A stretch of DNA of 64,000 nucleotides from Thermoplasmatota archaeon (GCA_963818745.1 CAWFTI010000001.1:236452-300451); one strand, 5' to 3'. Shown: positions 2,951 to 63,366, counted from the first letter of the stretch. Made by a program: numbers and translations. Notes: a model not told the origin generated them from the sequence alone.

Positions 2951-5945
2951 CTACAGTTTCTCTTCGCTGCCGCCCTTCCTCTTCTCTTCCTTCTCGCGCC
3001 TCGGGCCCTTCTTCTCGCGCTTCGACCACCTGCCGCGCAGGTAGAACAGCAGCGGGACCAGGACGATCACGGCCACGACGCCGCCCCACAGGGCGATCTT
3101 CTTCCAGCCGGCCTCGTTGACATCGACCACATCGGTCGAGTCGTCCTCTTCCAGCTGGTTCGTGCTCGTCACGTTCACCCTGATGCTGTACGAGCCCTTC
3201 GCGTCCGGGGTCCACGGGAACTTGGCCTGCACGGTGCCGCCGATCTCGATCGTCGTCACGGAGGTCGTCCCGTTCAGGAGCTGGGTCCATGTGCCTATGA
3301 GCTCCTCGGTGCCGTCGGGGTGCTCGATGTAGAACGTCAGGGTCACGCCCGTCGCCGCCGCGCTGCCGCGGTTGGTCAGGTTGACCACGATGTACCCGGC
3401 CTGGCCCTCCTCGAAGGTCTCAGGGTCGAACGTTATCGCATCTATGCGCACGTCCGGCCTCGGTCCGGAGGCCACCGTGATCCGCTTCGTGTAGGACTTG
3501 TAGTTGTCCGACAGGTCCGTCACGTTGACCTTGACCGCGAAGTTGCCCGTCTTCTCGTAGGTGTGCGTCACGTTGTATAGGCCCGTGCCGTTCAGCCAGG
3601 AGTCGTCGCCCAGGTCGTCGCCGAAGTACCACGAGAACGTCATGTTCGCGTTGTCGTCGACATTGTCGACAGTGGCGTTCGCGTCGAAGTACAGCAGCTC
3701 CTTCTCGACCAGGCTCGAGCCCCAGGTCTCGTTCTTCACGGTGAAGGTCGCGGTCGGGCCCGTCGTGTCGTTCACCCTGACGGTCATGGTGGTGTTCTTC
3801 CAGTGGCCCACGACATCCGTCACGTTCAGGGTGAGATTGTATGTGCCCGCATCGGCGTATGAGAAGCTGATGTTCTGCTCGTCCTCGGTCCAGTAGACCC
3901 TGCCCGAGGAGTTGCCCTCGCCGTACGAGAACTCGATGAAGTCTATCATGCCCAGGCCGTCGCCGACCGCTACAGCGTCATCCTCGGACGATGTGGCGTT
4001 GAGGGTGATCAGCTCGCTCTCGTTCACCTCGAGGACATTGCTCTCGTTGACGTACCCTTCCTTGACGGTTATCACGGGCACCGGGTCCCTCGCGTCGCAG
4101 ACGACCTCTATCTCGGTCCAGTTGACCAGGCCGGAGACATCCACAACAGTCAGGTTGACCATCTTCGATGCGTCAGCGAGCAGGTAGGTGTGGTTCGCGA
4201 GCACTTCCTCGGTCGTGAACAGCGAGGTCTCATCGTCGAAGTCCCACTCGTATGTGAGCGGGTTGCCGTTCGGGTCGAAGGAGTCCTCGGCCGTGAAGTT
4301 GACCAATTCGCCGACCTTGACGAAGTACTTCGTCACGTTGACCCCGTCCTCCATGTACGCGTACACGTACTCGGACGAGTCCACCATGCCGGCTCCTGCG
4401 CTCGGCCTCTCGCCTTCCTCGAAGGTCATCGCGACCGCCACGGGCCCTCCGACGTATTCCGCCGGGTCAAGGCTGACCGTGAGGTATCCCGAGACGAACA
4501 CATGCGTGTTCGACGAGATGCTGTCGTTCCAGACCAGCTCGTGGCCGGTCGGGAGAGCGACAGAGTATGTGTGGTTCACCGACGGCGTGTCGTACCACGA
4601 GTACGCCGACAGCGGCGTAGTCCTTCGCGCCCACATCCAGCGTAGTGGCCGGTGTGTATGCGCACGAGTAGGAGTATGCGAAGCCGTCCGTGAGTTCGAC
4701 CGAACCCTCGACAGTCGCGAGCGAGAAGTCCAAGAGCGTCTCGGACGACTCGTAGACCGTCTCGTTGACCGTCAGGAGGCGGGATGTGGTCACGTACTGC
4801 GACCCGTAGTCCAGGACCATGATCTCGAAGTCCGAGGCCTCGAGCGCGTCGACCGCGCCGTCGACCGTCTCCGAGTTCATGTCGATCTGCATCCTCAGGC
4901 TGCCGACATCGCCGTACATCAGGCCCGCGAAGGAGTCGTCATAGGACCATTCGGTCGAGACGTCCATCGTCATCGAGTTGAAGTCGGAGCCGTATGTCAG
5001 CGCGACGTTCTCCAGCCTCTGGGTCTGGTTCTCCAGGACAAGGTCGTTCAGGATGTATGTGGTCCCGGTCGGGATGGAGACGGTGGTGATGTTGGACGCG
5101 AGGCCTGCGGCGTCGACGCACAGGACGAAGTCGTATGCGTCATCGACATACGCGTACAGCTCGTACGAGCTCCCGCCCATGTCGCTCTTCATGACCCTCT
5201 TGATGAACGGGAGGTCCGGGTTGAGGCTCACCAGGTACGCCACGGAGTCGTCCGCGAGCGTGCCCTCGGAGTCCCTCACGAGGCCCCTGACCAGCTTCGC
5301 CTTGTTCAGCTCGATGGTCATGGTGTCGTCCGCGGAGACGGTGACCCCCTGTGTGTAGGTCTCGTAGGTCGCCTTCTCGACGAACATGTGTATGTCCAAC
5401 CCGAGCGCGCCGACCGCGTACATGTCGACCAGGGCGTATCCGAGGCTGTTCGTCGTGGCCTCAGAGACCACTTCGCGCCTCGAGTCGTCGTAGAAGCCCA
5501 CGCGGGCCCCGGAGACTACCTGGCCCAGGTTGTTCTCGACGGTCACGTTCCACGTGTAGTCCTTGATCGGCAAGGGCTCGAGGATGCACGACCGTGACAC
5601 GTAGGGCGTCAGGTCGTCGTACCTAATCCCGCCCGAGATGGCGTTCAAATCGTCATAGTAGTCCGCAGCTGTCACATCGACCCTGTAGTATCCTGACGGA
5701 GCGTCAGCAACAACGTAGAGACCGGATGAATAGACGGCATCGAATACCTCCCCGGTGTGCACGTTGGTCAGGGCGACAGTGGCCGAGTCAACAGTGTATG
5801 CGTCGGTGTCAAGCACCTGTATGCTCAAGTCGGGCTGCGTCGCCGCACGGCTAGTGTTCGCCATGGGCAGTGCAGCCAGCGCGGACAGCGCCATGACCAG
5901 TACAAAAACGCTGGCGTATAGCTTGCTCAATGAGTCTCTATTCAT
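2951..5945 (-). CDS. large secreted PKD-repeat surface protein with C-terminal membrane anchor (one +1 frame break near 4.62 kb)
   Basis: ORF 4467..5945 carries a signal peptide (MNRDSLSKLYASVFVLVMALSALAALPMA). ORF 2951..4636 carries PKD-like repeats (LTYEWDFDD, MTFSWYFGDD), the TM helix WGGVVAVIVLVPLLFYL and a Lys/Glu tail. Continuity ..TLDVGAKDY|TPLSAYSWYD.. suggests one ~1000-aa protein. Confidence 0.7.
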
Positions 5946-6020
5946 TCGATTTCCCCTCCCTCTCCTAGGAGCGCTAACCCAACTCCAATGTGAGAAAGGT
6001 ACTCCGCCGAATAGATTGCC

Positions 6021-6031
6021 CCTTTATAAGC
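6021..6031 (-). promoter_or_regulatory. candidate TATA box for the surface-protein gene
   Basis: The minus strand reads GCTTATAAAGG about 80 nt upstream of ATG 5945. The purine-rich SD GGAGAGGGAGGGG sits just before the start. Confidence 0.3.
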
Positions 6032-6095
6032 TTTAGGTACGAGCGCGGGCGCCACGGAGGGGCCTGCCGGATATGCTGGATGTACGGAACAGGCC

Positions 6096-7253: not shown

Positions 7254-7323
7254 CCGAAAACCTTCCCTCTAATCAAGCCAGTTCCGGTGCTTTTCCGGAG
7301 CATCGGGTTCTTGATTGATATAT

Positions 7324-8421: not shown

Positions 8422-8441
8422 GCGCTGACCATCCGCTCGCC

Positions 8442-10857: not shown

Positions 10858-10860
10858 CGG

Positions 10861-12562
10861 TCATACCCGTCTCTTGAAGAGCTTCTCCAGGTCCGTCGGG
10901 GACAGCACTATCATGGTGGGCCTGCCGTGCTCGCAGGTGTACGGGCTCTCCGTCCGCATCAGGTCCGCCAGGAGCTGCCTCATGCGCGAGTTCGAGAGCG
11001 GCTCACCCGCCCTGATGGATGTGTGGCACGCGACCCTCCAGATGACCTCGAGCCCCAGCTTCTTGGGCGAGGGCATGTGCGCCAGGTCGCCCAGTATGTT
11101 CCTCAGTGCGGCCTCCCCCTGGGCCACCCCGAGCACCGTGGGTATGGACCTGAGCGCGAACGCGCCCTTGCCGAACGGCTCCGAGACGAACCCGGCCTTC
11201 TCGAGCGTGTCCCTGTGCTCCTCCAGCACCCTCGCCTCGGCCGCGGTCAGGCTTATCACGAGCGGCGTCAGGAGCCTCTGGGAGACCTCCTTGCCGGTCT
11301 TGAGGGAGTTCAGGACGCTCTCGTAGACCACCCGCTCCGAGGCCGCGTGCTGGTCTATCAGCAGAAGGTTGCCCCTCGATTCGGCGAGGATGTACGTGTT
11401 CATGATCTGCGCCAGCGGGACCACTATCGGGTGCTCCTCCCCGCCCCGGCCCTCATCGACCGCGAGCGTGGCCTGCGCCCCCTCGACCGCGTCCCTCGGA
11501 TGTATGACCGCGCTGGGCTCGAAGGATTCCGAGAACCTAGTGAGGTCGAACCTGAAGCTCAGGTCGGGGGCTTCCAAGGACCCCTCGACACATCTCTGGA
11601 TGAGCGAGAGGACCGACTGTTCGTCAACGAACTTGACCTCACGCTTCGCCGGATGGATGTTGACATCGACCGACGAGCCGTCCACGAATATGCGGATGAC
11701 GCCCATGGGGTACCTGTCCTTCATGAGCCTCGAACCGTACCCTTTCACGACCGAGTGAACGACCTTCGGGCTCCTGACCGGCCTGTCGTTGACGAACACG
11801 TGAACGTCGGACGGGGCGGCCCTGGTATGTTCCAGCCTGGCCAGATGGGCCTCCACCCTGACCCCCTCGCCCTCCGCCTGACCCGGTCATGATGTTCTCC
11901 GCGACCTTCGCTCCGAACGCGTTCGCGAGCGAGCCGTTCATCCCCTCCGCCGCGGAGTGCACCATCTCGGTGACGCCGTCGGACCTGAACGAGAACGATA
12001 TGCCGGGCCTGCACAGGATGTAGTCGACCATGACCTCCCTGCAGTGCGCGAGCTCGACGGATCTGGACTTGAGGTGCTTCCTCCTCGCGGGCACGTTGAA
12101 GAACAGCTCCTCGACAGCCACCTCTGTCCCCGGAGGGCAGCCCGCGGGAGACACGGAATCTATCCGGCCTCCGGTGAGTCGGACCTCGGTCCCTTCGTCG
12201 GTCCCGTGCTCCCGGGTCCTCATCACGATCTTGGACACCGACGCGATCGAGGACAAGGCCTCCCCTCTGAACCCGTACGTGGAGAGCCTGTCGAGGTCGT
12301 CGATCGCGGCTATCTTGCTGGTCGCGTGCCTGTCGAAGGCCGCCCGCGCATCCTCCCTGGACATCCCGGCCCCGTCGTCCCTGACCTCGATCGACCGCCT
12401 CCCGCCGTCCTCGACGGAGACGGTCACGGCGGTCGCGCCGGCGTCGAGCGCGTTCTCGACGAGCTCCTTGACGACCGATGCGGGCCTCTCGACGACCTCT
12501 CCCGCTGCGATCTTGTTGATGGTGGCGTCGTCGAGGACGGTAATCCTGCCCGTGTCAATCAC
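10861..12562 (-). CDS. mutL: DNA mismatch repair protein MutL (one +1 frame break near 11.88-11.89 kb)
   Basis: N-terminal GHKL ATPase half is in the frame of 11639..12562 (VVKELVENALDAG, DDGAGM, TYGFRGEAL). The rest is in the frame of 10861..11856 (HVFVNDRPV, NIHPAKREVKF, C-terminal dimerisation region). Junction: ..AENIM|..GQAEGEGVRVEAHLA. Confidence 0.85.
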
Positions 12563-20067: not shown

Positions 20068-20081
20068 CCGAGGGTGTGAGG

Positions 20082-20176
20082 TAGCCCCGGGAGGATTCGA
20101 ACCTCCGTCGCAGGATCGCTCCTTGCGAGATACGCAATCCAGAGTCCCGCATGATTGACCACTACACTACGGGGCT
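20082..20176 (-). tRNA. tRNA-Gln (CUG) with 22-nt intron
   Basis: Cloverleaf folded by hand: acceptor AGCCCCG/CGGGGCT, T-arm GGAGG-TTCGAAT-CCTCC, anticodon stem CGGGA/TCCTG with loop CU-CUG-GA. The intron (about 20117..20138) sits at the canonical 37/38 position. No encoded CCA. Confidence 0.85.
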
Positions 20177-25190: not shown

Positions 25191-25450
25191 GCGACTTGGC
25201 GACCTTGATCGTCTCGTCCCTGGCCTTCCTGGCACCCTTCTTGCCGATATCTATCGCCGCCTTCACCAGGGGCTTCGTCTCCTTCAGTACCAGGTCCGTG
25301 ACCTCGACTCCTTTCTCGAGCGCCTTCCCCGTCGACCTTCGCGACCCTCCCGAAGTTCTTGTCCACGACGCTCTGGCTCGGGCCGTGGCCGCAGTGCGGG
25401 CACGCGCCCGCCTTTCCGATGTTTCTGCCGCAGCTGGAACACTTGACCAT
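25177..25450 (-). CDS. small Zn-ribbon protein (probable +1 frame break near 25.33 kb)
   Basis: ATG 25450 lies behind GGGAGGA; MVKCSSCGRNIGKAGACPHCG. After the GGGG run (25327..25330) the +1 frame gives the protein-like KALEKGVEVTDLVLKETKPLVKAAIDIGKKGARKARDETIKVAKSLRED*. The original frame becomes Gly/Arg-rich junk. Confidence 0.45.
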
Positions 25451-25545: not shown

Positions 25546-26278
25546 ATGGCAGACCTGTTAAGCATCGCGAGCGGCATCGCGGGGTTCGGGCCCGCGATGG
25601 CCCTGATGTTCTACACGCTCAGGGACTACACGTACCCCGCCGTCGAGAAGCCGTTCTTCAACGACAAGAAGATATTCGCGTTCTTCGCGCTCGGGATAGT
25701 CATCGGGATGCTGCTGTTCGCGTTCGAGTCCTGGGGTCAGACGATATCGTCGACGAAGACGCTCCTGGCGCTGATAGTAGGGTTCGCGGTCATGGAGGAG
25801 CTGCTGAAGCTCGTCGTGCTGAACTATCCCAAGTTCCAGAGGAAGGTGGACACCGCATTCTACGGCCTGTCGTTCGGGCTCGGGATATCCGCGACATTCA
25901 CCTTCGCGACGATCTACGCCAGCGCACTCAGCCTCGAGACCGTCAAGGCAGAGGACATGGTCGCGTTCTCGCTCCTGGGCGTGCAGCTCGTCCTGCTCCA
26001 CGGGTCGACCACGGCCCTGATAGGGATAGGCGTGGCCAGAGGGAACGTGAAGGCTTACTTCGTCGGAGGCGCTCCTGTTCCACCTCGGGTACAATGTCCT
26101 GATGATACCGTTCTTCATGTTCGAGATCGTGACGCCCCCGTTCAACCTGATAGGGCTGGCCGCGGCGTCGGCGGTGGTCATATATGCATACGTCAAGGTC
26201 CACAGGACCTCGCTGCCTGCGCTGGTCTGGGACGCGAAGCGTCTCTCGAAGAAGGCCGAGCCGGTCAAACGGACCTGA
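25546..26278 (+). CDS. PrsW-like intramembrane protease (one +1 frame break near 26.06 kb)
   Basis: Polytopic membrane protein with an EELLK motif. After the break the +1 frame continues EALLFHLGYNVLMIPFF.. (HxxxN motif) to TGA 26276..26278. Confidence 0.65.
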
Positions 26279-35160: not shown

Positions 35161-35395
35161 CGGCTTCCCGGGAACGGTTCGAAAAGCAATCGGCACGAGG
35201 CGTTTCCGATATCCGAACATGCACTACTCTATTCGACTCGGACGATTGTTCTCCGCGAGCGCGCGCGCAGGAGACCCGAAGGCGATGCGCCGATGCGCGG
35301 TCGAGGCATTGGCTCGCCGCGGAGCAACACGCTTCCCAATGACCGATGAAGGCGCGAAATTGCGCACTGTTTTCGCATTGTCCAGACGCATATCA

Positions 35396-35403
35396 TTTAT
35401 ATA
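35396..35403 (+). promoter_or_regulatory. consensus archaeal TATA box upstream of the opp-like locus
   Basis: TTTATATA lies 81 nt upstream of the TTG 35484 start. GGGGGA SD at 35472..35477. Confidence 0.5.
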
Positions 35404-35483
35404 GCATGGAGTTTAATGCGGAGTCCAGTTGGCCGGGTGGAACCGGTCCACTGAGAGATGATTTGTCTAATGGGGGACTGTAG

Positions 35484-39336: not shown

Positions 39337-39455
39337 GGAGACGTCAAACTCAAGAAAACCATTCCCAAACCCCTTACAAACCACCTCCTTTGTGAGACAG
39401 GGAGCGTTAGGCAGGTGCATCGGACTAGCCTACGGAATAGAACCATACGGACGGT

Positions 39456-40442
39456 GTGAAAGTGAGTTCGTTCAGGAAAGTGCTGGCGAAGAGGATATTC
39501 AATGCGTTCGTGACGATTCTGCTCATCATGCTCGTCAACTTCCTCCTCTTCAGGATCATGCCCGGGGACCCGGCGCAGCTTATGACCCCAAGGTCCCCAA
39601 CCACGTCCCCAGTGGCGTACGAGAAGAACGTCGAGATGATGGGGCTCGACCAGCCGCTCTACATCCAGCTGTACAAATACTTCGTCGGGACGTTCACGGG
39701 TGATTGGGGCATATCGTATCTAAACGAGAAACCTGTGCTTGAAGAAGTCGGCGGCGCGATCAAATGGACCGTGCTGCTCCTGGGCACCGCTAGCATACTC
39801 ACCTTCCTCGCCGGCATAATCCTGGGAAAGATTGCCGCCAGACGCAGGGGGAAGCCCGTAGATGTGATGATAACCGGGTTCGGCCTGTTCTTCTACGGCA
39901 TGCCGATATTCTGGTTCGGCATCATCCTGATGGTCATCTTCGCCGCCCAGCTGAACTGGTTCCCGTCATCCGGCTACATGAGCTCGGGGATGGTCCCTGA
40001 GCTGACTGTCGCAGCCGTCTCCGACATCATCTGGCACATGACGCTGCCGGTCATGACCCTGACGATAGGGTCCGTCGCCGGCATAGTGCTCATACAGAGG
40101 AACTCGCTCGTGGATGTGCTCACCGAGGAGTACATAGTCACCGCATATGCGAAAGGCCTGGACGAGCGACAGGTCATGAAGCGCCACGCCACCCCGAACG
40201 CGCGCCTGCCAGTCGTCACCACGCTTGCGATGGACACCGCGTTCATCCTGGGCGGCGCGTTCCAGATCGAGGTTGTCTTCAGCTACCAAGGGCTCGGGTA
40301 CATGACCATCGAGGCCATCGGCAAGCAGGACTATCCGCTGCTGGAGTGCATATTCCTCATAGGCGGGATCGCTGTGGTCATCGCCAATCTCTTGGCCGAC
40401 CTGATGCTGGTCAAGCTCGATCCGAGGGTGTCGATCACATAG
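39456..40442 (+). CDS. ABC transporter permease (OppB/DppB-like)
   Basis: GTG start. N-terminus RIFNAFVTILLIMLVNFLLFRIMPGDP and an EAA-type loop YAKGLDERQVMKRHATPNA. Confidence 0.85.
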   Translation: MKVSSFRKVLAKRIFNAFVTILLIMLVNFLLFRIMPGDPAQLMTPRSPTTSPVAYEKNVEMMGLDQPLYIQLYKYFVGTFTGDWGISYLNEKPVLEEVGGAIKWTVLLLGTASILTFLAGIILGKIAARRRGKPVDVMITGFGLFFYGMPIFWFGIILMVIFAAQLNWFPSSGYMSSGMVPELTVAAVSDIIWHMTLPVMTLTIGSVAGIVLIQRNSLVDVLTEEYIVTAYAKGLDERQVMKRHATPNARLPVVTTLAMDTAFILGGAFQIEVVFSYQGLGYMTIEAIGKQDYPLLECIFLIGGIAVVIANLLADLMLVKLDPRVSIT

Positions 40443-40454
40443 GGGGGATGGGAT

Positions 40455-41393
40455 ATGAAGTTCGAAAAGGCACTCGAAAACGGAGCAAAGAGACTGTTCG
40501 GATTCAACCCCGTCCTCGCAGACAAGATGGGGCTTTCGATGAGGAACTTCGGGAGGACCACGGACCTATTCCTCAAGACATGGATGGGCGTGATCGGCCT
40601 GCTGATCATCGTGTTCTTCCTCGGCGTGGTCGTCTTCGCGCAGATCGTGTACCCTGACCAGCAGGTGAGCAACCTGTCTGAGAGCCTGTGGTTCCCCTCC
40701 GAGGAGCATCCTCTAGGCACGGACAAGCTGGGCAGAGATGTCATGATAAGGTTGCTCCAGGGGACGAAGGCATCGCTCACGGTCGGGTTCGTCGCGATGG
40801 GGTTGTCCATGGGGCTCGGGACCCTCGTCGGGTTGGCCTCGGGCTACTGGGGCGGATGGAGGGACGAGGTCATCATGAGGGTCAACGATGTGTTCCTGTC
40901 CATCCCGTGGCTGGTGCTGATGATAGTCATCGCATCGCATCTTCCGGCACACGGGACCTCGATGTCGGTCATCATCGTCATCGGCGTCACCGGATGGTCC
41001 ACCACCGCGAGGATCGTCAGGTCGCAGGTGCTGTCCCTCAAAGCGAGGCAGTTCGTCGAGAGGGCGAAGGCCATCGGCTCCAGGCGACTGGCACATCATA
41101 AGGAAGCACATCTTCCCCAACGTCGTCCCGCTCATATTCGCGAACGCCATCCTGACCATCGCGATATCCATCCTGTCGGAGAGCACGCTCAGCTTCCTCG
41201 GGCTCGGGCCCGCAGGACGTCGAGACCTGGGGCAGGATCCTGGAGGACGCGTACAACGCGAACGCCGCCATGAACGGGCCCGTACCCGTTCATCATCATG
41301 CCCGGCCTGTGCATCGTGATCGTGGTGCTCGGGTTCACGTTCATCGGGTACGCGATGGACGAGGTCCTGAACCCGAAGCTGAGGAAGAGATAG
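40455..41393 (+). pseudogene. ABC transporter permease (OppC/DppC-like); three +1 frame breaks in the last 320 nt as sequenced
   Basis: Intact to ..FVERAKAIGS. It then continues by successive +1 shifts: DWHIIRKHIFPNVVPLIFANAILTIAISILSESTLSFLGLGP / QDVETWGRILEDAYNANAAMNG / YPFIIMPGLCIVIVVLGFTFIGYAMDEVLNPKLRKR*, ending at TAG 41391. Confidence 0.8.
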
Positions 41394-41447
41394 GCGGGCA
41401 CCAGATGCCCGAAAAACCCCTTATCCATTGTTTCTTATCCACAGCAA

Positions 41448-41458
41448 CCTTAAAATAC
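41448..41458 (+). promoter_or_regulatory. candidate TATA box for rps3ae
   Basis: CCTTAAAATAC lies about 50 nt upstream of ATG 41505. Confidence 0.35.
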
Positions 41459-41504
41459 GGAATGCCGTTATCGAGCCCTACCTAGCACTCATCAGAGGTA
41501 TCAG

Positions 41505-42263
41505 ATGGCACAGAAGGTAAGGGCGACGGCCAAGAAGGTCAAGGACAGGTGGCGGGCGAAGGAATGGTACAAGATATACGCCCCCGACATGTTCAGCAAG
41601 ATGCTGCTCGGCGAGACCCCTTCGGAAACCCCGGAGGGCGTCATGGACAGGATGACCGAGGCCACGGTGCAGGACCTCACCGGAGACTTCTCCAAGATGC
41701 ACATCAAGATCAAGTTCAGGGTCAACAAAGTCGTGGGCCTCGACGCCCACACGACGTTCGACGGGCACGACCTGACCAGCGACTATGTCAGGAGGCTGAC
41801 CCGAAGGAAGAGGACCAAGACCGACGCGGTCGTCGATGTCACGACCAAGGACGGCTGGGAGATCAGGGTGAAGCCCATGGCCGTGTCCGAGCAGAGGATA
41901 CAGGCCTCCCAGGAGACCGAGATCAGGCGCATCATGAAGGAGACGAGCAAGCAGGTCGCGGCCCAGGCCACGATAGGCGAGTTCGTCAGGATGCTCATCA
42001 TGGGGGAGCTCGCGAAGGCCGTCTCTGACGCGTCCAAGAGAGTAGTCCCTATCAAGAGGATCGAGATCCGCAGGAGCGAGGTCAAGATGGCCGGGAAGTT
42101 GCCCGATCCAAGCGAGGCGCCCATAATCGCCCCGCTGGAGAGCGAGCCCCAGCCTGAGGAGGCCGAAGAGGCTGCTCCCGCACCGACGGGCGAAGCGCCC
42201 GCGGAGGCCGCGCCCGCAGCCCCCGCGCCTGTGGCTCCTGCAGAGGACAAGGGCCCTGAGTGA
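41505..42263 (+). CDS. rps3ae: 30S ribosomal protein S3Ae (eS1) with Ala/Pro/Glu-rich C-terminal tail
   Basis: KVKDRWRAKEWYKIYAP.., GDFSKMHIKIKFRV.., SDYVRRLTRRKRTK. About 50 aa of low-complexity tail (EPQPEEAEEAAPAPTGEAPAEAAPAAPAP). Confidence 0.9.
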   Translation: MAQKVRATAKKVKDRWRAKEWYKIYAPDMFSKMLLGETPSETPEGVMDRMTEATVQDLTGDFSKMHIKIKFRVNKVVGLDAHTTFDGHDLTSDYVRRLTRRKRTKTDAVVDVTTKDGWEIRVKPMAVSEQRIQASQETEIRRIMKETSKQVAAQATIGEFVRMLIMGELAKAVSDASKRVVPIKRIEIRRSEVKMAGKLPDPSEAPIIAPLESEPQPEEAEEAAPAPTGEAPAEAAPAAPAPVAPAEDKGPE

Positions 42264-42311
42264 AAGGCACGGACATGCCTGTCCCAAGGCCTGCATCGGT
42301 TCATGCGCAAT

Positions 42312-42419
42312 GTCGGGGTGGCTCAGACTGGTGGAGCGTCGGACTCATAGGGAGTTCTTCTGACCAGATGCTCCTCGGACATCCGGAGGTCGCGGGTTCA
42401 AATCCCGTCCCCGACACCA
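42312..42419 (+). tRNA. tRNA (anticodon CAU: elongator Met or Ile2) with 31-nt intron and encoded CCA
   Basis: Acceptor GTCGGGG/CCCCGAC, D-arm GCTC-AGACTGGTG-GAGC, anticodon CAT at 42346..42348, intron 42350..42380 at position 37/38, T-arm GCGGG-TTCAAAT-CCCGT, A73 then CCA (42417..42419). Confidence 0.85.
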
Positions 42420-42456
42420 TTATCGGCGGAGAACGTATTCTGCGAACGCACCGGAC

Positions 42457-43695
42457 GTGAGGGCCATTAGGATCATCATATACACCGGCAAGGGCGGCGT
42501 AGGAAAGACCTCGGTCGCCGCCGCGACCGCGCTCAGGTGCGCCGAGCTGGGCCACCGGACCATCGTCATAAGCACGGACGCCGCGCACAGCCTGTCCGAC
42601 TCGCTGGAGGTGCCCCTCTCGGGCGTCATCCAGAACGTCTCGAAGAACCTGGACGGGCTCGAGGTCGACATGCAGCTCGAGCTCGAGACCCGCTGGAAGG
42701 AGATCCAATCGTACTTCTCCGACTTCCTCGCGTCGCAGGGCATGGACGGCATCTCGGCGAAGGAGATGGCCGTGTTCCCGGGCATGGAGCTCATGTCCGC
42801 GCTGTTCTATGTCGAGGAGTTCCACAAGGCGAAGACATACGATGTCGTCATCATGGACACCGCCCCGACCGCGGACACGCTCCGGCTGCTCGCCTTCCCC
42901 GACATCGCCAACTGGTACTTCGACCACCTGTTCCACATGGTGAAGAACGTCATCAAGATCGCGAGGGCGACCGTAGGCAAGTTCGTGTCCACCCCCCTGC
43001 CCTCGGACAGGTTCCTGGACGACCTCGAGGGCCTCAGGGAGAGGCTGCGGTACGTCAGGGACCTGCTGACGGACCCGGAGATCACCTCCGTGAGGCTCGT
43101 CGTGAACCCCGAGAAGATGGTGATCACCGAGACGCAGCGCGCGTACACGTACCTGTGCATGTACGGGTACACGGTCGAGAGCCTCGTCCTGAACAGGATC
43201 ATACCCGAGAAGGTCCACGACCCGTTCTTCGCGGAGAAGCTCGAAGAGCAGAGGACGCACCTGCAGACCATAGACGAGATGTTCAACCCCCTGAAGACCT
43301 TCAGGGCGGAGCTGATGCCCCGGGAGGTGCTGGGGACCAAGGCGCTGGAGATGCTCGCCGATCAGCTGTTCGGGAGCGAGGACCCCGCGAAGGTGCACTC
43401 CACGGAATCGCCCATGAGGATATACGGCGAGCAGGGCGCGAGCGTGCTCGCGGTGAAGCTGCCGTTCCCGATGGAGCAGAAACTAGAGCTATATACGCGC
43501 AAGGATGTTCTGACGTTGCAGCTAGGCGCGTTCAAGAGGTCCATCAGCCTCCCGCACGCCCTCACAGGGAAGAAGGTGCTGGGGGCGGAGATGGACGGCG
43601 CGTGGCTGAAGGTCAGGTTCGAGGGTGAGGAGATTGGCAAAGGGAAAGCGGGAAAGGGGCGCGGAAGAGGCAAGGCGCCTCGAAAGGCATCTTGA
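42457..43695 (+). CDS. ArsA/Get3-family ATPase with C-terminal HSP20-like domain
   Basis: GTG start. P-loop GKGGVGKTS, STDAAHSLSD, DTAPTADTLRLL. C-terminal beta-sandwich-like ..LAVKLPFPMEQKLELYTRKDVLTLQLGAFKRSISLP. Confidence 0.85.
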   Translation: MRAIRIIIYTGKGGVGKTSVAAATALRCAELGHRTIVISTDAAHSLSDSLEVPLSGVIQNVSKNLDGLEVDMQLELETRWKEIQSYFSDFLASQGMDGISAKEMAVFPGMELMSALFYVEEFHKAKTYDVVIMDTAPTADTLRLLAFPDIANWYFDHLFHMVKNVIKIARATVGKFVSTPLPSDRFLDDLEGLRERLRYVRDLLTDPEITSVRLVVNPEKMVITETQRAYTYLCMYGYTVESLVLNRIIPEKVHDPFFAEKLEEQRTHLQTIDEMFNPLKTFRAELMPREVLGTKALEMLADQLFGSEDPAKVHSTESPMRIYGEQGASVLAVKLPFPMEQKLELYTRKDVLTLQLGAFKRSISLPHALTGKKVLGAEMDGAWLKVRFEGEEIGKGKAGKGRGRGKAPRKAS

Positions 43696-43729
43696 GGAGA
43701 TAGCGTCGAAGGTCACCGGCAGGGAGACC

Positions 43730-43954
43730 ATGACTCATTTCGTGAACGCGGGCATGGAGGTCATCCAGGCCGCGAACGTCGCGCTCGAGCACATGGACGT
43801 GCCGGACGAGACGAAGCTGAGGATCCACAGGGCCGAGCGCGAGGTCCTGCTCGCGACCAGGAGCTTCATCGACGCGATCCTGCTCGAGGTCGAGAAGGAG
43901 ATCCCGAAGAAGACCGAGCTGAAGAAGGTAGAGATAATCCGAAAGTCGAAGTGA
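43730..43954 (+). CDS. small helical hypothetical protein (74 aa)
   Basis: ATG 43730 lies 35 nt after the ArsA-like stop. Amphipathic, coding-like sequence; no family recognised. Confidence 0.4.
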   Translation: MTHFVNAGMEVIQAANVALEHMDVPDETKLRIHRAEREVLLATRSFIDAILLEVEKEIPKKTELKKVEIIRKSK

Positions 43955-44043
43955 CTGGGCGAGCATATCGCCTAGGCACAGCTTTTTTACACGAAGCACA
44001 TTACCCATCAGAACCCTAGCGGAAACTAGGGAGGTCAGATCAT

Positions 44044-46322
44044 ATGACTAAGATGTTGGTCCCGTACCCTGACAAGTGCACTGGCTGCAGGTTCTGCGAG
44101 ATGGCCTGTTCGATATACCACGAAGGAAAGGTCAACCACGCCGACGCGCGGCTGCAGGTGCACAGGAAGAACATAAGGATAGACTTCCCGTCCGTGTGCA
44201 CGCACTGCGTGTCCTGCGGCGACGACTGCTGCGTCCTCCACTGCCCCGTCGAGGCGATCAAGAAGGAGGACGGACGCGTGTACGTGGACGAGGAGGAGTG
44301 CACCGCGTGCGGGACGTGCGTCGAGGTCTGCCCGTTCGGCGTCATGCGCATGGAGGAGAAGGCCTTCAACTGCGACCTGTGCGGCGGCGACCCCACATGC
44401 GTCAAGTTCTGCCCGATGAGCGCGATAGTGTACGAGGAGCCGAAGCCCGAGCAGTACGAGCAGGTGAAGAAGCTGCTCAGGGGAGGAGTGAAGATGAAGG
44501 GTTACACAGGCAAGATCCTCAAGGTGGACCTGACGACCGGGCACTCGCACGCGAGGACGCTCGACGAGAAGCACGCGAGGAAGTACCTGGGAGGCCAGGG
44601 GTTCGCGGTCGAGATCGTGTACCACGGTGTCCCGAAGGGCGCGGACGCGCTCTCCCCCGAGAACGTCCTGGCGATGGCCGGCGGCGTGTTCGACGGATTC
44701 CCGGTGCGCACGGGCGGCAAGACGGTGTTCGCATCGAAGTCCCCGGCCACGGGCACGCTCGCGGAGAGCATCATGGGCGGCTCGATCGGGGCCGAGCTCA
44801 GGCACGCGGGGTACGACGCGCTGGAGATCGTCGGGAAGGCGGACGGACCATCTTACATATTCATCGAGGACGAGAAGGTCGAGGTCAACGACGCATCCGA
44901 CCTCTGGGGCAAGGACACCAGGGAGGTCCCCGAGATGCTCAAGAAGAAGCACGGCTGGGACGTCAAGGTCGCGTGCATAGGCGTCGCAGGAGAGAAGCTC
45001 TCGAAGATGGCGTGCATAGACTGCGACGACAGGCAGGCCGGCAGGGCGGGCCTGGGCGCGGTCATGGGGTCCAAGAACCTGAAGGCCATCGTGATCAGGG
45101 GCACGAACGACCTCGAGCCCGCGGACCCGGGCAAGCTGCTCGAGATAGCCCTCAGGTACCAGAAGATCTGCGAGGCCGCTCCGTCGTTCATCGAGGACAC
45201 GAAGTACGGCACTGGCGAGTTCCTGGGCTGGGTCAACAAGGAGAAGGGCGTGTTCCCGACGAGGAACTGGCAGGAGAGCGTGTTCAAGGAGAGGGAGCAG
45301 ATCGACCCGTACTACTGGGCGCCGAAGTACGTCACGAAGAACAAGGCGTGCTTCGCCTGCACCAAGCCCTGCGGGAAGCTGTTCGAGGTCAAGGGCGGCA
45401 GGTTCGACGGCACTGCGCTCGACGGGATCGAGTACGAGACGCTCTACTCGCTCGGGGGCGCGTGCGGCAACGCCGACGTCGAGAGCGTCGCGAGGGCGAA
45501 CGAGCTCTGCGACCTCGTGGGCATCGACACCATCTCCGCGGGCGTGACGATAGGGTTCGCGATGGAGCTGTACCAGAGGGGCATCATCACGGAGAAGGAT
45601 GTCGGCTTCAAGCTCACCTGGGAGAACGCCCCGGACGCTGGTCCCGAAGATGTGCGGCATGATGGGCAGGCGGGAAGGGCTTCGGGGACGTGCTCGCGGA
45701 CGGCGTCAAGGTCGCGGCGCAGAGGATCGGCAAGGGGGCCGAGAGGTACGCCGTGCACACCAAGGGCATGGAGCCGCCCGCGTACGATGTCAGGGGCATG
45801 AAGGGCCACGGGCTGGCGTACATGACCTCCACCAGGGGCGCGTGCCACCTGAGGGCCGGGTTCTACGCACCCGAGCTGGTCGGCAAGTTCTGGAAGTGGG
45901 AGGGCATAGACAGGTTCAGCCCCGCGGGCAAGGGGGCCATGGTCGCCACGATGGAGAACTTCATGTGCGTCTACGACTCCGTCGGCCTGTGCAAGTTCTC
46001 GAGAGGGTTCTTCCTGATAGACAAGCTCAGGGAGGTCATCGAGGCCATCACCGGGCTCAAGTTCACCGAGGACGAGCTGCTCAAGATAGGCGAGAGGATA
46101 CACAACATGAAGGGCGACTTCAACGCCAGGGAGGGCGTCACGAGGAAGGACTGGCTCCTGCCTCCGAGGATCACCGAGGACCCGATCGTCGACGGACCCT
46201 CCAAGGGCAGCAGGATAACCGTCGAGGAGATGAACGTGATGCTCGACGACTACATGAAGGCCCGCAACTGGAGCAGCGAAGGGGTCCCGAGCCCGGAGAA
46301 GCTCAAGGAGCTCGACCTCTGA
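44044..46322 (+). CDS. polyferredoxin domain fused in frame to aldehyde:ferredoxin oxidoreductase (AOR family); two +1 frame breaks near 45.64 and 45.68 kb
   Basis: N-terminal ~150 aa carry multiple CxxCxxCxxxCP clusters. The AOR part starts at MKGYTGKILKVDL (ATG 44494, behind GGAGGAGTGA). Frames run 0 -> +1 (..LVPKMCGMMGRREG..) -> +2 (..FGDVLADGVKVAAQRIGKG..), ending at 46322. Confidence 0.85.
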
Positions 46323-46406
46323 GCGGTGTGAAACTCAACGGAAGAGGTCTCACGACCTCTTCAAACCGATTCCCTTTTCCATAATCCAATCTCAGGAGCG
46401 TGCGGG

Positions 46407-46759
46407 CTAGAGCACTCGCATGGTCTCCGCGAGCTCGTCCAGCTTCTTCTTGGCGAGCGCGACGTCCGCTCTGGTCGGCAGGACGGCGACGATGAGCGCC
46501 TTGCGGCCGGCCCCTATCACGATGAGCTTCGCGTCCTCGCTCTCGACGACGACGGTCTGCGGGGTCCCCACGCGCAGCTCGGAGTTGGCCGTGGAGGCCG
46601 CCCCCAGAAGGGTAGCGCACATGATCGCGAACGTCTCGGCCGAGACGCCCTCAGGCACATCGGAGGCGATGATGAGCCCGTCCCTGCTGATGATGGCGGA
46701 CGCGACCGCTCCGCAGCTCTGCCTGAGCGACCTTAAGGCGGGTTTCAGCTCCGTGTCAT
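46407..46759 (-). CDS. Roadblock/LC7 (MglB-like) domain protein; start unresolved, possibly fused to the upstream V4R ORF
   Basis: Roadblock-like ..LKPALRSLRQSCGAVASAIISRDGLIIASDVPEGVSAETFAIMCATLLGAA..AKLIVIGAGRKALIVAV. The frame is open from 46766 but has no in-frame start before GTG at 46667 (the V of DVPEG; the ORF-track ATG is at 46658). ATG 46759 (ATGA overlap) is out of frame. Confidence 0.7.
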
Positions 46760-47223
46760 TCCCCCCCTATCGGTTCAGTCTTGAAAACGCAGTGCTTGTC
46801 CCCTTTGCTGACGCACTCGATCTCCTCGCAGTGGAGCCGCCTGTGCGAGTTGGCCTCGAAGACCTTTCGGACGATGCCCCTGAGCCTGTGACAGGTCGGG
46901 ATGTCCGCCTGGGACGACTCGACCGAGCCTTCGGCCACTGCAGTGGATTCCTCGAAGACGATGTTGTCGACCCAACCTCTGGCCCTGAGGAGGTTGGCGC
47001 AAATCTCGAAGTACTTCTCAGGCTCCTGCAGGGCGATCTTTGAAATCTCCTCGCCCAGTATCATGCCCTCCCTGAAGAACAGGCCGTAGCAGGCCTGGGA
47101 CATGACGCCTTCGTAGAGCTTCCTGATCTCCTCGAACTCGGACTGCGAGAGCTTGACGAACTTCATGGGCTCGCTCTGTGGATTCATATCGAGCATATTT
47201 AAGGTTTGGTTCCCGGCAATCAC
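46756..47223 (-). CDS. V4R domain protein
   Basis: V4R-like ..YGLFFREGMILGEEIS..CHRLRGIVRKVFE..CVSKGDKHCVF. It ends ..PIGGE* right after a G7 run (46761..46767 on the + strand as C7). Confidence 0.7.
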   Translation of the reverse strand: MIAGNQTLNMLDMNPQSEPMKFVKLSQSEFEEIRKLYEGVMSQACYGLFFREGMILGEEISKIALQEPEKYFEICANLLRARGWVDNIVFEESTAVAEGSVESSQADIPTCHRLRGIVRKVFEANSHRRLHCEEIECVSKGDKHCVFKTEPIGGE

Positions 47224-47312
47224 GCCAGTCTGGGGATGCCAAGAACGAGGCCGACCCCCTGGGACGGTTGAAAGCCTTTTAATCGCGGTACCCTATTCCA
47301 GCACCAGATAGG

Positions 47313-47933
47313 ATGTTCTCGGAACAGGAAGGGGAATTGGCTGTCAGGATAGCCAGGGCGGTCGTCGAGGCGCACGTAAGGCGACAGAAGCCGCCGGCTT
47401 CCGAGGTACCGCAGAGGTTCGAAGAGAAATCTGGGGTGTTCGTCACGCTCACCACATACCCTTCGGACGACCTCAGGGGATGCATAGGCTACCCGGAACC
47501 CCTCCTCCCTCTGATCGAGGCCCTGAGGGATTCCGCAGTCAGCGCTTGCTCGAGGGATCCGAGATTCCCCCCGGTGCGCGCTGACGACCTTGGCAAGACC
47601 AGGGTGGAGGTCAGCCTCCTGACCCCGCCTCAGGAGATACAGCCGAAGAAGCGCACGGACCTCCCAGGCATGGTCAAGGTCGGCGACGACGGCCTCATAG
47701 TCCAGAAGGGATGGGCCAGGGGACTCCTGCTCCCTCAGGTGCCGGTCGAATGGAAGTGGGATGCCGAGGAATTCCTGTGCCAGACCTGCATCAAGGCCAT
47801 GCTACCCCCGGACAGCTGGCTCCAGAACGAGACGAAGATCTTCAAGTTCCAGGCAGAGGTGTTCTCGGAGGACAAGCCCGGCGGGAAGATCAGACGAAGG
47901 AAGCTCAGTGAAGACCATGGAAGTTGTCGTTGA
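47313..47933 (+). CDS. AMMECR1 domain protein
   Basis: SGVFVTLTTYPSDDLRGCIGYPEP.., DPRFPPV.., GLLLPQVP are signature AMMECR1 motifs. Confidence 0.85.
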   Translation: MFSEQEGELAVRIARAVVEAHVRRQKPPASEVPQRFEEKSGVFVTLTTYPSDDLRGCIGYPEPLLPLIEALRDSAVSACSRDPRFPPVRADDLGKTRVEVSLLTPPQEIQPKKRTDLPGMVKVGDDGLIVQKGWARGLLLPQVPVEWKWDAEEFLCQTCIKAMLPPDSWLQNETKIFKFQAEVFSEDKPGGKIRRRKLSEDHGSCR

Positions 47934-49182
47934 GGGTAACTGCTTCGTCTCTGGCAGGATCGAGAGATGCTGCGTAGGCATCGAGAACGGAAGGATCGTC
48001 AGGGTAGCGAGAGTCCTCGAAGGGGACCGCAAGTTCGACTTCGGCTCCAAGCTCATCATCCCGGGGGCGACCGACTGCCACGTCCATTTCAGGGACCCCG
48101 GCATGACTCAGAAGGAGGATTTCGCCTCTGGCTCGCTCGCAGCCGTGCACGGCGGCGTCACCTGCGTGTTCGACATGCCGAACACGAAGCCCGCCACGAC
48201 GACGATGGAGGCCCTCGAGGAGAAGAGGGGCATCGCGTCCGCGAAGAGCATGGTGGATTTCGGGCTGTTCGCGGGCATGCTGCCGGGGGTCGATGTCCAG
48301 GCGCTCGCCCCGAAATGCATAGGTTTCAAGATCTACATGGCCGGGACCACTGGCGGCTTGCTCGTTCCATCGCTCGAATCCGTGAAGAAGGAGATCGCAG
48401 CGGTCGCCGCGTCAGGGAAGGTGCTCGCGGTACACGCGGAGGACGAATCGCTCCGGAGGAAGGATCCTGAGAAGGACCTCGGGGACCACCTCAAGAACCG
48501 GGGCAACGAATGCGAGACGAGCGCGATCAGGAAGGTCCGGCAGGCGGCGTCCGCGTGCAAGCTCCATGTGTGCCATGTCTCGGCCAGGGAGTCTCTCCCG
48601 CTCCTTCCGAAGGGTGCGAACCTCACCACCGAGGTGTCCCCTCACCACCTCCTGCTGGACAGGGCCTCGAACCTGGGGACCAGGGGCAAGGTCAACCCGC
48701 CCCTGAGAAGGAGGGAGGACCGGCAGGCCATGTTCCAGGCGCTCAAGAACGGGGAGTTCGACATCGTCGCCTCCGACCATGCGCCCCACACGCTCGAGGA
48801 TAAGGATGAGGACTTCGAGTACGCCCCGACCGGCATGCCAGGCGTGGAGACGATGCTCCCGCTGATGCTGCAGCTCGTCAGGGACAGGCACATCGCCTTG
48901 GAAGACCTCGTGAAGCGGCTCTGCGAGAGGCCGGGCCAGATATTCGGGGTCCCGAAAGGGAGGATCGAGCCTGGGTACGACGCCGACCTCGTCGTGATAG
49001 ACCCGATGGAAGGGAGCGAGATAAGGGCGGACAGGCTGCACTCGAGATGCGGCTGGACGGCCTTCGAGGGGATGCAGGCGGTTTTCCCGAAGGCGGTCTT
49101 CCTCCGGGGCGAGATAGTCGTCGAGAACGGCTCGGTCGCAGGGGACCGGAGGGGAAGGGGAGTCATTGATGCGTCCAGATGA
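47917..49182 (+). CDS. pyrC: dihydroorotase (cyclic amidohydrolase family)
   Basis: ATG 47917 overlaps the end of the AMMECR1 gene. DCHVHFRDPG, VHAED, ASDHAPH metal-binding motifs. Confidence 0.8.
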   Translation: MEVVVEGNCFVSGRIERCCVGIENGRIVRVARVLEGDRKFDFGSKLIIPGATDCHVHFRDPGMTQKEDFASGSLAAVHGGVTCVFDMPNTKPATTTMEALEEKRGIASAKSMVDFGLFAGMLPGVDVQALAPKCIGFKIYMAGTTGGLLVPSLESVKKEIAAVAASGKVLAVHAEDESLRRKDPEKDLGDHLKNRGNECETSAIRKVRQAASACKLHVCHVSARESLPLLPKGANLTTEVSPHHLLLDRASNLGTRGKVNPPLRRREDRQAMFQALKNGEFDIVASDHAPHTLEDKDEDFEYAPTGMPGVETMLPLMLQLVRDRHIALEDLVKRLCERPGQIFGVPKGRIEPGYDADLVVIDPMEGSEIRADRLHSRCGWTAFEGMQAVFPKAVFLRGEIVVENGSVAGDRRGRGVIDASR

Positions 49183-60551: not shown

Positions 60552-60568
60552 AAGGGGGTATAAAACAC

Positions 60569-61006: not shown

Positions 61007-61022
61007 GGAGGGCTGACCCTCC

Positions 61023-61721: not shown

Positions 61722-61730
61722 GGTGGATCG

Positions 61731-63366
61731 ATGCCTTTCAACATGGCCAAGGTCTTGCAGCGGAACCCGCACCTCAGCCTGTACCTTCAGGACTACGTCC
61801 AGAAGACGAAGCAGAACCCGAACTTCGTCGAGACGGTATCCAGGGACGCCGCGAAGGGTGGGGCCGCTGACATACTCTACCCTGTGGGCGACCCCATATT
61901 CATCCACCTGCACGGGTCGAAGGACAAGGGGTACAAGTACACCGTCGTGCAGCCGATACTGACCCCGGAGCTGGCGGAGAGCTACACGAAGGTCGTCAGC
62001 CGCATCTTCGTCAAAGCGGGGGGCGAGAAGATCCACACGAACGACAAGGAGTTCAACGATGTTCTCGACGCGCTCCTGGCGGACATAGTCAAGGTGACAG
62101 GCCGGGCGAGCCCTTCGAAGCTCGTCCAGATGTTCAAGCCAAGCCACAAGATCCACATCGCGGAGGACGACTACGGCATCGTCGAGTACTATGTCAAGAG
62201 GAACGTGCTGCAGAACGGGATCCTCGAGCCGGTCCTCAGAGACCCGTACATCGAGGACATCCACTGCGTCGGCCTCAGGGAGATCAACATCATCCACAAG
62301 GTCTTCGGGATGGTCGAGACGAACATCGTGTTCGACTCAGCGGCCGACCTCGACCGGTACGCCAAGGGCATGAGCGAGCGGATGGGCAGGCCCGCGTCCA
62401 TATCGAGACCGATCATCGACGGCGCGCTTCCCGGACGGCTCCCGTATCAACATCATCTACGCGGACGATGTGAGCGTCCAGGGACCGACATTCACCATCA
62501 GGAAGTTCGCGACCGAACCGATCTCGGCCCCGCAGCTGGCCAAGTGGAACACCTTCAGCGCCCAGGAGGCCGCATACCTGTGGCTGTGCCTCGAGAACGG
62601 CATGAGCGTGTTCGTCTGCGGCGAGACGGCGTCCGGCAAGACGACGACGCTGAACGCCATCTTCCCGTTCATAAGGTACGACCAGAAGATATTCTCCGCG
62701 GAGGACACCTTGGAGGTCCAGCCGCCCCAGGAGGTCTGGCAGCAGCTGTCCACCAGGGAGTTCGGCCCCGAGGAGAGCAGGGTCGACACATTCGCGCTGC
62801 TCAAAGCGGGCCTGAGGTCAAGGCCGAACTATGTGATCGTCGGTGAGATCAGAGGGAAGGAGGGGAACGTCGCCTTCCAGGCCATGCAGACTGGCATCCC
62901 TGTCATGGCGACCTTCCACGCCGCTTCCGTCAAGAGGATGATACAGAGGTTCACGGGCGACCCGATCAACGTGCCCATCACGAGCATGGACAACCTTAAC
63001 GTCGCGGTGTTCCAGGCAGGGGTCTACAGGGCCGGGAAGATGATCAGGCGCACCCTGTCCATCGAGGAGATCCTGGGATACAGCCATTCCATGGGAGGGG
63101 TGATGACCAGGGCGGTGTTCGTCTGGAACCCCGTCTCGGACGAACATCTGTTCAGGGGCATGAACAACTCCTTCATCCTCGAGGAGAAGATCGCGGTCAA
63201 GAGGGGGTACAAGGACAAGAGGGACATCTACAAGGAGCTGGCCGTGAGGACCAAGATCATCGAGAAGATGATGGAGACGAACCTCTTGGCATACAAGACC
63301 GCGAACGACGCCATCAAGGCGTTCCAGAAGGAGGGCGTGTCGGGACTGCCCTTCTCCGTGCAGTGA
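61731..63366 (+). CDS. arlI: ArlI (FlaI) archaellum assembly/motor ATPase (one +1 frame break near 62.43 kb)
   Basis: ATG lies behind GAGGTGG. N-domain ..YPVGDPIFIHL... After ..IIDGALP the +1 frame continues DGSRINIIYADDVSVQGPTFTIRKF.., Walker A GETASGKTTTLNA, GEIRGKE. Confidence 0.9.

Follow-up and report, generated by a model that had tools for sequence, protein, structure and literature searches.

Introduction

Programmed +1 frameshifting, as in bacterial prfB, antizyme and Euplotes, and quadruplet decoding resemble the genes analysed here in that an extra base must be skipped. In the programmed systems the shift happens at a defined slippery (shifty) site whose position is conserved among orthologues, whereas the extra bases reported here lie at hundreds of random sites, and this genome offers no motif, site conservation or special tRNA. 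Pseudogene-rich decaying genomes and mismatch-repair mutators are alike in another respect, because many conserved genes are interrupted, mutL included. However, decaying genomes carry nonsense codons, deletions, indels in both directions and a loss of codon bias downstream, and mismatch-repair mutators show homopolymer slippage, none of which marks this genome.

Residual indels in Nanopore-only metagenome-assembled genomes (MAGs) split genes genome-wide regardless of function, and they accompany contiguous assemblies with a low completeness score, as is the case here. The same signature occurs in a catalogue MAG of the same genus and is missing from near-identical short-read assemblies. The classic errors of Nanopore consensus sequences are indels in homopolymers, frequently deletions. 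Published accounts of such MAGs likewise stress homopolymer indels, whereas the errors here are non-homopolymeric, favour insertions by about 5-10:1 and come in short bursts; consensus errors of this non-homopolymeric, insertion-biased kind are not described in PMC12313526, PMC9262707 or PMC13087279. Previous studies showed that near-finished quality takes about 40x coverage when only Nanopore reads are assembled (Sereika et al. 2022, PMC9262707), and that only 56.8% of proteins were full-length in a metaFlye soil assembly according to an IDEEL-type truncation test (PMC13087279).

The window, a stretch of 64,000 nucleotides from a Thermoplasmatota archaeon (GCA_963818745.1, CAWFTI010000001.1:236452-300451), belongs to a MAG of four contigs (the largest 762 kb) with a completeness of 68.8%. 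Judging from sequence comparison, we put a probability of about 93% on the reading that its frame breaks arose as consensus errors when a metagenome was assembled from long reads only, and that the genes of the organism are intact.

Mapping of the frame breaks

Breaks were mapped with a purpose-written protein-to-DNA aligner that allows frameshift moves, and ORFs of a same-genus genome (G001) served as queries in the window. The aligner is direction-neutral, because simulated errors were recovered almost equally (192/200 insertions called as +1, 191/200 deletions called as -1). Final genome counts combined this aligner with flank-identity filters and greedy selection; counting of HSP junctions, the first approach, was dropped, since it was confounded by gene boundaries and by the shadow ORFs of a high-GC genome.

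The original prediction had listed about 21 breaks in the window, and frameshift-aware alignment to the G001 ORFs confirmed that 20 of them are present in the deposited sequence (19 of +1, one of which is probable, and one of -1/+2), the site at 46.76 kb being the one that fell. With that site removed and an unlisted one at about 44484 added, the final tally is again 21 breaks, 20 of them +1, and at about 0.3 per kb the window does not stand out from the genome. A homology-free GC3 frame plot switches phase at the same coordinates as the aligned breaks, and the shifted segments keep a GC3 of 0.8-0.9 in their own frame after every break. Adjoining pieces of broken genes match consecutive stretches of one Pfam model (AFOR_C, MutL), and the relatives G001, G002, G003 and G010 are in frame at the breaks of the window.

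Broken genes in the window

A gene for a large surface protein on the minus strand, whose orthologue is a 985-aa G001 ORF, carries a +1 at 4604-4610 (aligned site 4607); ORFs of G001, G002, G003 and G010 all place it at about 4607-4613, and the GC3 phase shifts at 4634. Also on the minus strand, mutL is split by a +1 at 11875-11890 (aligned at 11878), found by alignment and by Pfam, with HATPase_c_3 upstream of the break and DNA_mis_repair (positions 30-118/119) and MutL_C downstream of it. A small Zn-ribbon-like ORF on the same strand has a +1 at 25330-25336 (aligned at 25333), and its orthologues are single ORFs in G002, G003 and G010. All further breaks lie on the plus strand. The gene of a PrsW-like membrane protease is broken by a +1 at 26060-26067 (aligned at 26062), where the window reads TAC TTC g TCG GAG and G002 reads TAC TTC TCC GAG, and an M20 peptidase gene by a +1 at 33886-33892 (aligned at 33888).

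Four +1 breaks were aligned in the SBP_bac_5-PKD substrate-binding protein gene, at 36080-36090, 36689-36700, 37601-37612 and 38530-38550 (aligned sites 36087, 36697, 37604 and 38547); Pfam SBP_bac_5 positions 108-284 lie on the second piece, and the orthologues on two short-read contigs, L181 and L182, are unbroken. The oppC-like permease gene contains three +1 breaks, which in combination regain the frame. At 41078-41084 (aligned at 41082) the window has ggctccAggcgac and L181 has ggctcc-ggggat in the nucleotide alignment; at 41205-41212 (aligned at 41206) it has CTCG against CTC in G001 and CTG in L182; the third, at 41273-41277 (aligned at 41273), was placed by protein alignment and nucleotide comparison.

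The break missed by the original prediction lies at 44481-44486 in a small 4Fe-4S ferredoxin gene and was found by nucleotide alignment with L181 and L182. This extra base at about 44484 destroys the TGA stop, so that the ferredoxin gene runs in frame into the aldehyde:ferredoxin oxidoreductase (AOR) gene, with CAGGGGAGGAGTGAAGATG at the junction in the window against CAGGGGGGAGTGAAGATG in both L181 and L182. AOR itself has a +1 at 45637-45641 (aligned at 45640), where L181 reads GAC CTG GTC, L182 GAC GCG GTC and the window GAC GCTG GTC; the window thus resembles a merger of the two alleles. A second +1 in AOR, at 45675-45678 (aligned at 45677), is GAAG in the window against GAG in L181, L182 and G001, and Pfam AFOR_C positions 5-163 and 183-385 fall on successive pieces of the gene.

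The break that had been claimed at 46.76 kb in a V4R/Roadblock gene is an ordinary gene boundary on the minus strand (46752-46761). The V4R protein has the same GGE terminus as its G010 counterpart, with its TGA at 46756-46758, and is followed by a separate Roadblock/LC7 gene, which is a gene of its own in G001, G002, G003 and G010; where the relatives carry the ATG start, the window has ACG (46752-46754).

In the archaellum region, the gene of a long archaellin-domain protein (arlB2; 588 aa in G001) has a +1 at about 56012, whose exact base is uncertain within 56010-56030, and Pfam Arch_flagellin lies on its first piece. The arlB3-like archaellin gene was aligned to two G001 archaellin paralogues, which gave a -1 (or +2) at 57657-57662 and +1 breaks at 57726-57732 and 57933-57946 (aligned at 57728 and 57940). 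The event at 57660 is the only one in the window that runs against the +1 direction, just as had been predicted for the break near 57.66 kb. Another +1 close to the C-terminus (58027-58055) lies outside the aligner calls and was placed from the frame position; it is probable near 58030-58050, as the C-terminal ASVVVLK and its stop lie in the next frame, and the G001 protein ends in TDIITLK. Finally, the archaellum ATPase gene arlI is broken by a +1 at 62428-62432 (aligned at 62430), with CTT c CCG GAC in the window against CTC CCG GAC in G001, and Pfam T2SSE on the downstream piece.

Genome-wide tally

Alignment of 1,109 genes (1.16 Mb) to a complete family relative detected 292 +1, 55 -1 and 32 +2 events, which are spread over all four contigs at about 0.33 per kb; the whole draft genome holds some 350 or more single extra bases. 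In genes at least 70% identical, +1 and -1 events number 173 and 17. The two directions are thus unequal genome-wide, and both the directional argument of the original prediction and its reading of the breaks as an insertion-biased consensus or assembly artefact are supported. At least one well-flanked event occurs in 223 of the 1,109 genes, and roughly a fifth to a third of the genes are split. By comparison, 40-47 kb of the clean genomes G003 and G010 hold 0-1 events.

Genes 60-100% identical to G010, including the 80-100% class, carry 0.26-0.36 events per kb, and genes below 50% identity 0.65 per kb, an excess that is partly alignment noise. Orthologues of RpoB, MCM, CDC48 and FBP aldolase/phosphatase are among the broken genes, and for those of RpoB, MCM and CDC48 the rate does not differ from that of the remaining genes. 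Because the breaks are genome-wide and include essential genes, those in the window are almost certainly assembly errors and not biology. Genuine in-frame stops number about 3 against about 380 frameshifts; 184 apparent in-frame stops had been counted, most of which were shadow frames or upstream extensions of stop-to-stop ORFs, and about 3 survived inspection.

Independent assemblies

Over 8.3 kb, the window and L181, a short-read contig from JGI, are 97.1% identical in nucleotide sequence. Neither L181 nor L182 has the extra base at any of the six nucleotide-aligned sites (three in oppC, one in the ferredoxin gene and two in AOR), and none of the ten breaks that these contigs cover is present in them, the SBP-PKD genes being uninterrupted. 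Over 64 kb, G002, of the same genus, has 22 events of +1 and 5 of -1, at positions that differ from those of the present genome, and its mutL is intact (573 aa) despite the same +1-biased signature. This MAG is MFD00709.bin.2.183, and the MFD isolate name points to the Microflora Danica catalogue, which was assembled from Nanopore reads only with Flye --nano-hq and one round of Medaka (PMC12313526).

Sequence context of the extra bases

Several sites in the window had been noted to sit in short G/C runs, an association that does not hold in general, because genome-wide the run lengths equal those of simulated random insertions. Among 202 isolated +1 sites, 61% are single bases and 1.5% lie in runs of at least 4; this distribution fits random-base insertion and differs from a duplication model, which rules out a homopolymer origin. 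The uniquely placed extra bases are nearly uniform (A16 C16 G13 T17), bases that duplicate a neighbour being excluded by construction. Contexts are diverse, no 3- to 6-mer is enriched at the sites after Bonferroni correction, and a methylation or slippery motif was ruled out on this ground. The codon-phase weights (0.328/0.336/0.336) equal those of simulated random insertion and show no phase preference. ARAGORN predicted 28 tRNAs, among which there is no expanded anticodon loop (8 nt, as for a four-base anticodon). An odd ARAGORN call, tRNA-??? with a two-base anticodon, is located at C1:436102.

Taken over the genome, the errors are direction-biased, motif-free, phase-blind, essentiality-blind, non-compensating and absent from near-identical assemblies.

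Alternative explanations

Real recent mutation, either in a mutator lineage (for example through a broken mutL) or in early decay that would make about one third of the genes pseudogenes, would agree with the split in mutL itself at 11878 and with the clustering of the breaks, but we regard it as very improbable. A lineage without mismatch repair accumulates many transitions as well as slippage in homopolymers, towards insertion and deletion alike, whereas the sites here are non-homopolymeric. The insertion bias of 5-10:1, the scarcity of nonsense codons (about 3), the average break rate of RpoB and MCM, the full coding periodicity downstream of the breaks and the 97%-identical contig without all six nucleotide-aligned breaks also count against it. 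G002 shares the signature with an intact 573-aa mutL, and together with the nonsense-to-frameshift ratio this leaves mutator and decay strongly disfavoured; a mutator through broken mutL in particular was rejected in view of the G002 gene, the lack of homopolymer runs and the few stops. Archaellin paralogues are often dispensable, and a mixture is conceivable in which most breaks are artefacts and a smaller share marks true pseudogenes among strain-variable accessory genes, with the arlB3 archaellin paralogue and SBP-PKD as candidates. The higher event rate of fast-evolving genes (0.65 per kb below 50% identity) and arlB3, which holds the only -1/+2 of the window plus three +1 within 0.4 kb, point in this direction, and a few individual breaks, for example in arlB3, could be real. 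As a general account the mixture is nonetheless unlikely, because non-compensating +1 bursts also strike conserved genes (four events in the PurL orthologue at 83% identity, six in another gene at 80%), the SBP-PKD orthologues are intact in L181 and L182, and the raised rate in low-identity genes is partly alignment noise.

The strong, uniform +1 direction on both strands, together with segments that are each open and codon-biased in their own frame, would also suit real extra bases that are circumvented during expression, whether through programmed +1 ribosomal frameshifting, through quadruplet decoding or through RNA editing that deletes a nucleotide. Such a bypass has hardly any chance of being correct, as the sites share no motif, codon or k-mer and no codon-phase preference, 0 of 28 tRNAs have an 8-nt anticodon loop, 55 events of -1 are also present, the sites are conserved neither within the genus nor in the 97%-identical contig, and the same signature stands at unrelated positions in the Nanopore-only G002. 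We give equally little credence to the idea that both this Thermoplasmata lineage and its congener G002 truly carry the extra bases in their DNA, so that the cell would tolerate or correct about 400-500 random +1 insertions, some of them in rpoB and MCM; candidate mechanisms would be nucleotide deletion from transcripts or, in a polyploid population, a very recent burst of insertion-biased mutation.

Consequences and probable origin of the errors

The frame breaks are not a real biological feature and serve only as a data-quality warning. Because of the splits, the completeness estimate (68.8% for four contigs) is distorted, and so are the gene calls, the counts of pseudogenes and the reconstructions of metabolism; apparent findings such as a lost mutL, a ferredoxin-AOR fusion or a degraded archaellum or opp locus are artefactual. 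Any use of this assembly, or of other long-read MAGs with comparably low coverage, G002 among them, requires frameshift-aware protein prediction or polishing; the residual errors are insertion-biased and non-homopolymeric, so homopolymer-directed polishing would miss them.

Under the preferred reading of consensus error, a spurious single base roughly every 3 kb would have persisted in a deposited MAG of low coverage and probably mixed strains. The technology was presumably Nanopore with Flye and Medaka, as for G002, an attribution made because of this same-genus MAG and the contiguity of the assembly. The Flye polisher, Medaka at low depth and strain mixing are candidate generating steps.

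Clustering had been advanced against a pure artefact. It is real, with a dispersion index of 4.8 in 20-kb bins over the whole genome and 41 gaps of at most 100 nt between events against 7.8 expected, but it is a genome-wide property of these events. Close pairs comprise 31 of +1/+1 against 4 of compensating +1/-1, which fits local bursts of poor consensus and argues against selection or decay. Such bursts may have arisen from consensus over strain-variable or thinly covered stretches. A strain-variable island contains or borders the densest cluster of the window (SBP-PKD, oppB and oppC); one metagenome contig matches the window at 97% identity beyond 40.8 kb, but across 35.2-40.8 kb it is about 70% identical or unalignable. 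At some sites the consensus appears to write two strain alleles side by side. Third-position allele merging was not supported as a general mechanism, given the flat codon phase and the only partly supportive transition adjacency (a transition partner is adjacent in 73% of cases, where random insertion gives 61.5% and a pure model 96%). Both known alleles are seen merged at two of the six nucleotide-aligned sites (45637 and 41205).

Frame Breaks in the Window

The assembly holding the window (G000) is archaeal, 1.57 Mb long in four contigs, with 62% G+C and an estimated completeness of only 68.8%; the window occupies 236452-300451 of its largest contig. The relatives are described in public records as uncultured Thermoplasmata MAGs. 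With third-codon-position G+C at ~0.9, composition directly reveals the coding frame, and a homology-free GC3 frame plot displayed a phase switch at essentially every coordinate where the original prediction had placed a frame break. Syntenic regions were compared in two genomes of the same genus (G001, G002) and two of the same family (G003 and the complete G010), using a protein-to-DNA aligner written for this analysis with explicit moves for one extra (+1), two extra (+2), and one missing (-1) base. In simulations with 200 insertions and 200 deletions, 96% of each were recovered with the correct sign; the aligner therefore has no directional bias.

Frameshift-aware alignment with G001 ORFs placed +1 events at 4607, 11878, 25333, 26062, 33888, 36087, 36697, 37604, 38547, 41082, 41206, 41273, 45640, 45677, ~56012, 57728, 57940, and 62430, and a single -1/+2 event at 57660. 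An additional +1 near 58030-58050 is indicated by the C-terminus, and a previously unlisted +1 at ~44484 abolishes the stop codon that would end a small ferredoxin gene, fusing it to AOR. Pfam searches bear out that neighbouring pieces hold consecutive parts of single domains: AFOR_C is divided into positions 5-163 and then 183-385, and the MutL pieces carry the ATPase domain, then DNA_mis_repair (30-118) and MutL_C. With one exception, the predicted breaks are confirmed as present in the deposited sequence. The break proposed at 46.76 kb is an ordinary gene boundary, where V4R terminates in GGE and a stop, just like its G010 counterpart, and all four relatives encode Roadblock separately. After these corrections the count stands at 21 breaks, and +1 events make up 20.

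At the start of this Roadblock/LC7 gene downstream of V4R (window 46752-46754, minus strand), the window has ACG where G001, G002, G003, and G010 have the ATG that begins M-E-L-K-P; no in-frame canonical start was found past the upstream stop. Possible readings of the ACG are an erroneous substitution, a genuine change of start codon, or coupling to V4R.

Genome-Wide Tally and Properties of the Extra Bases

When the ORFs of the complete 1.98-Mb G010 were aligned to the whole G000 assembly and events with well-conserved flanks were counted, the 1,109 non-overlapping alignments, which cover 1.16 Mb, yielded 292 +1, 55 -1, and 32 +2 events. The excess of +1 claimed for the window accordingly holds genome-wide, at 0.33 events per kb and on all four contigs; in genes at least 70% identical to G010, the ratio of +1 to -1 was 173:17. 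The window, at ~0.3 per kb, matches the genome average and is nothing special. In G003 and G010, the identical procedure turned up 0-1 events per 40-47 kb. Events were over-dispersed (dispersion index of 4.8 over 20-kb bins), with 41 gaps of at most 100 nt against 7.8 expected, and close pairs comprised 31 +1/+1 versus 4 frame-restoring +1/-1.

The most conserved genes were hit at the same rate as other genes. Removing bases one at a time and rescoring each version localised 202 isolated +1 events; the best site lay in a run of length 1 in 61% and of at least 4 in 1.5%. Simulated insertions of random bases at random places gave a matching distribution, and homopolymer extension a clearly different one. 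Uniquely placed extra bases, which by construction leave out those duplicating a neighbour, were A (16), C (16), G (13), and T (17), and codon-phase weights were flat (0.328/0.336/0.336).

Genome-wide, only three in-frame stops in conserved coding frames were convincing, all outside the window (C1:409621, C3:479159, and C3:356729), with TGA aligned to W, TAG to S, and TAG to L. Either substitution errors or infrequent genuine lesions probably account for them.

Independent Contigs and a Second Genome

Scanning JGI short-read metagenome contigs with the AOR piece yielded L181, which has 97.1% DNA identity to window 40838-49130, and L182, with 92.6% over 39.5-55.6 kb. The extra bases at 41082, ~41206, ~41276, 44484, ~45638, and 45675 are absent from both, and the oppC, AOR, ferredoxin, and SBP-PKD genes are unbroken in both contigs. 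Together with the genome-wide pattern, the missing extra bases in near-identical independent assemblies favour the assembly artefact suggested by the original prediction.

Left of 40.8 kb, L181 drops from 97% to ~70% identity or ceases to align, which places the SBP-PKD/oppB/oppC cluster partly inside a strain-variable island and partly on its border; the SBP-PKD/oppB region (35242-40838) was ~70% identical or unalignable by blastn. Exactly where the island meets the 97%-identical segment, window 40937-40965 differs from L181 within 30 nt by four separate one-base insertions and a one-base deletion (net +3, in frame), a pattern resembling a chimeric consensus formed where strains break apart.

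G002 (30 contigs, 67% complete) shows the same insertion-biased signature in events of its own, with 22 +1, 5 -1, and 1 +2 in 64 kb, at positions unlike those of the window. Its frameshifts hit argS and mutS, among other genes (G002:C21:1-80000). Wherever the comparison was possible, namely in AOR, arlI, M20, PrsW-like, and the Zn-ribbon ORF, G002 is unbroken at the window's breaks. The public record names it isolate MFD00709.bin.2.183, whose MFD label identifies it as a member of the Microflora Danica long-read catalogue. That catalogue used Nanopore reads only, assembled by Flye --meta --nano-hq with one Medaka round, and its authors note that MAGs of low coverage, which are often archaeal, contain errors associated with Nanopore (PMC12313526). 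Near-finished quality from Nanopore alone takes ~40x coverage (PMC9262707), and only 56.8% of proteins were full-length in a metaFlye soil assembly (PMC13087279).

Origin of the Breaks

We consider it highly probable (roughly 0.93) that the breaks are consensus errors, namely single bases inserted spuriously, in a long-read-only, probably low-coverage, strain-mixed MAG. The statistical properties of the events and the lack of the extra bases in near-identical independent contigs are shown by the data; the sequencing technology of G000 and the step generating the errors are what we infer here. Real mutational decay, or a mutL mutator, is contradicted by the non-homopolymer context, the bias towards insertion, and the near absence of nonsense codons: of 184 apparent in-frame stops ~3 are genuine, and nearly all the others come from shadow frames or from stop-to-stop ORFs that extend upstream of the gene. 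Essential genes are struck as well, the broken orthologues including RNA polymerase subunit B, MCM, CDC48, and FBP aldolase/phosphatase, and mutL in G002 is intact as one 573-aa ORF. Programmed +1 decoding is likewise contradicted: no 3- to 6-mer near the sites was enriched after correction, the sites lack conservation, and an ARAGORN scan reported no four-base anticodon in any tRNA. For accessory genes such as arlB3, a few breaks could nonetheless be real.

Regarding how consensus errors of this kind might form, two strain alleles may have been written side by side, which fits a couple of sites. The window's GAC-GCTG-GTC at 45637 corresponds to CTG in L181 and GCG in L182, and its CTCG at 41205 to CTC or CTG in relatives; judged from these sequences, both look like two merged alleles. 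As a genome-wide explanation, the mechanism has no more than partial support: transition-partner adjacency was 73%, compared with 61.5% for random insertion and 96% for a pure side-by-side model, and no third-position excess was seen. As consensus errors, the breaks represent no real biological feature, and their value is limited to a data-quality warning.

Two tRNA genes were also recorded. Outside the window, ARAGORN called a 'tRNA-???' of 97 nt, its anticodon two bases long, at C1:436102-436198, which may be an intron-containing archaeal tRNA or an indel-damaged tRNA gene. Within the window, the tRNA-Gln(CTG) at 20080-20176 (minus strand) is 97 nt long, a length suggesting that it carries an intron.
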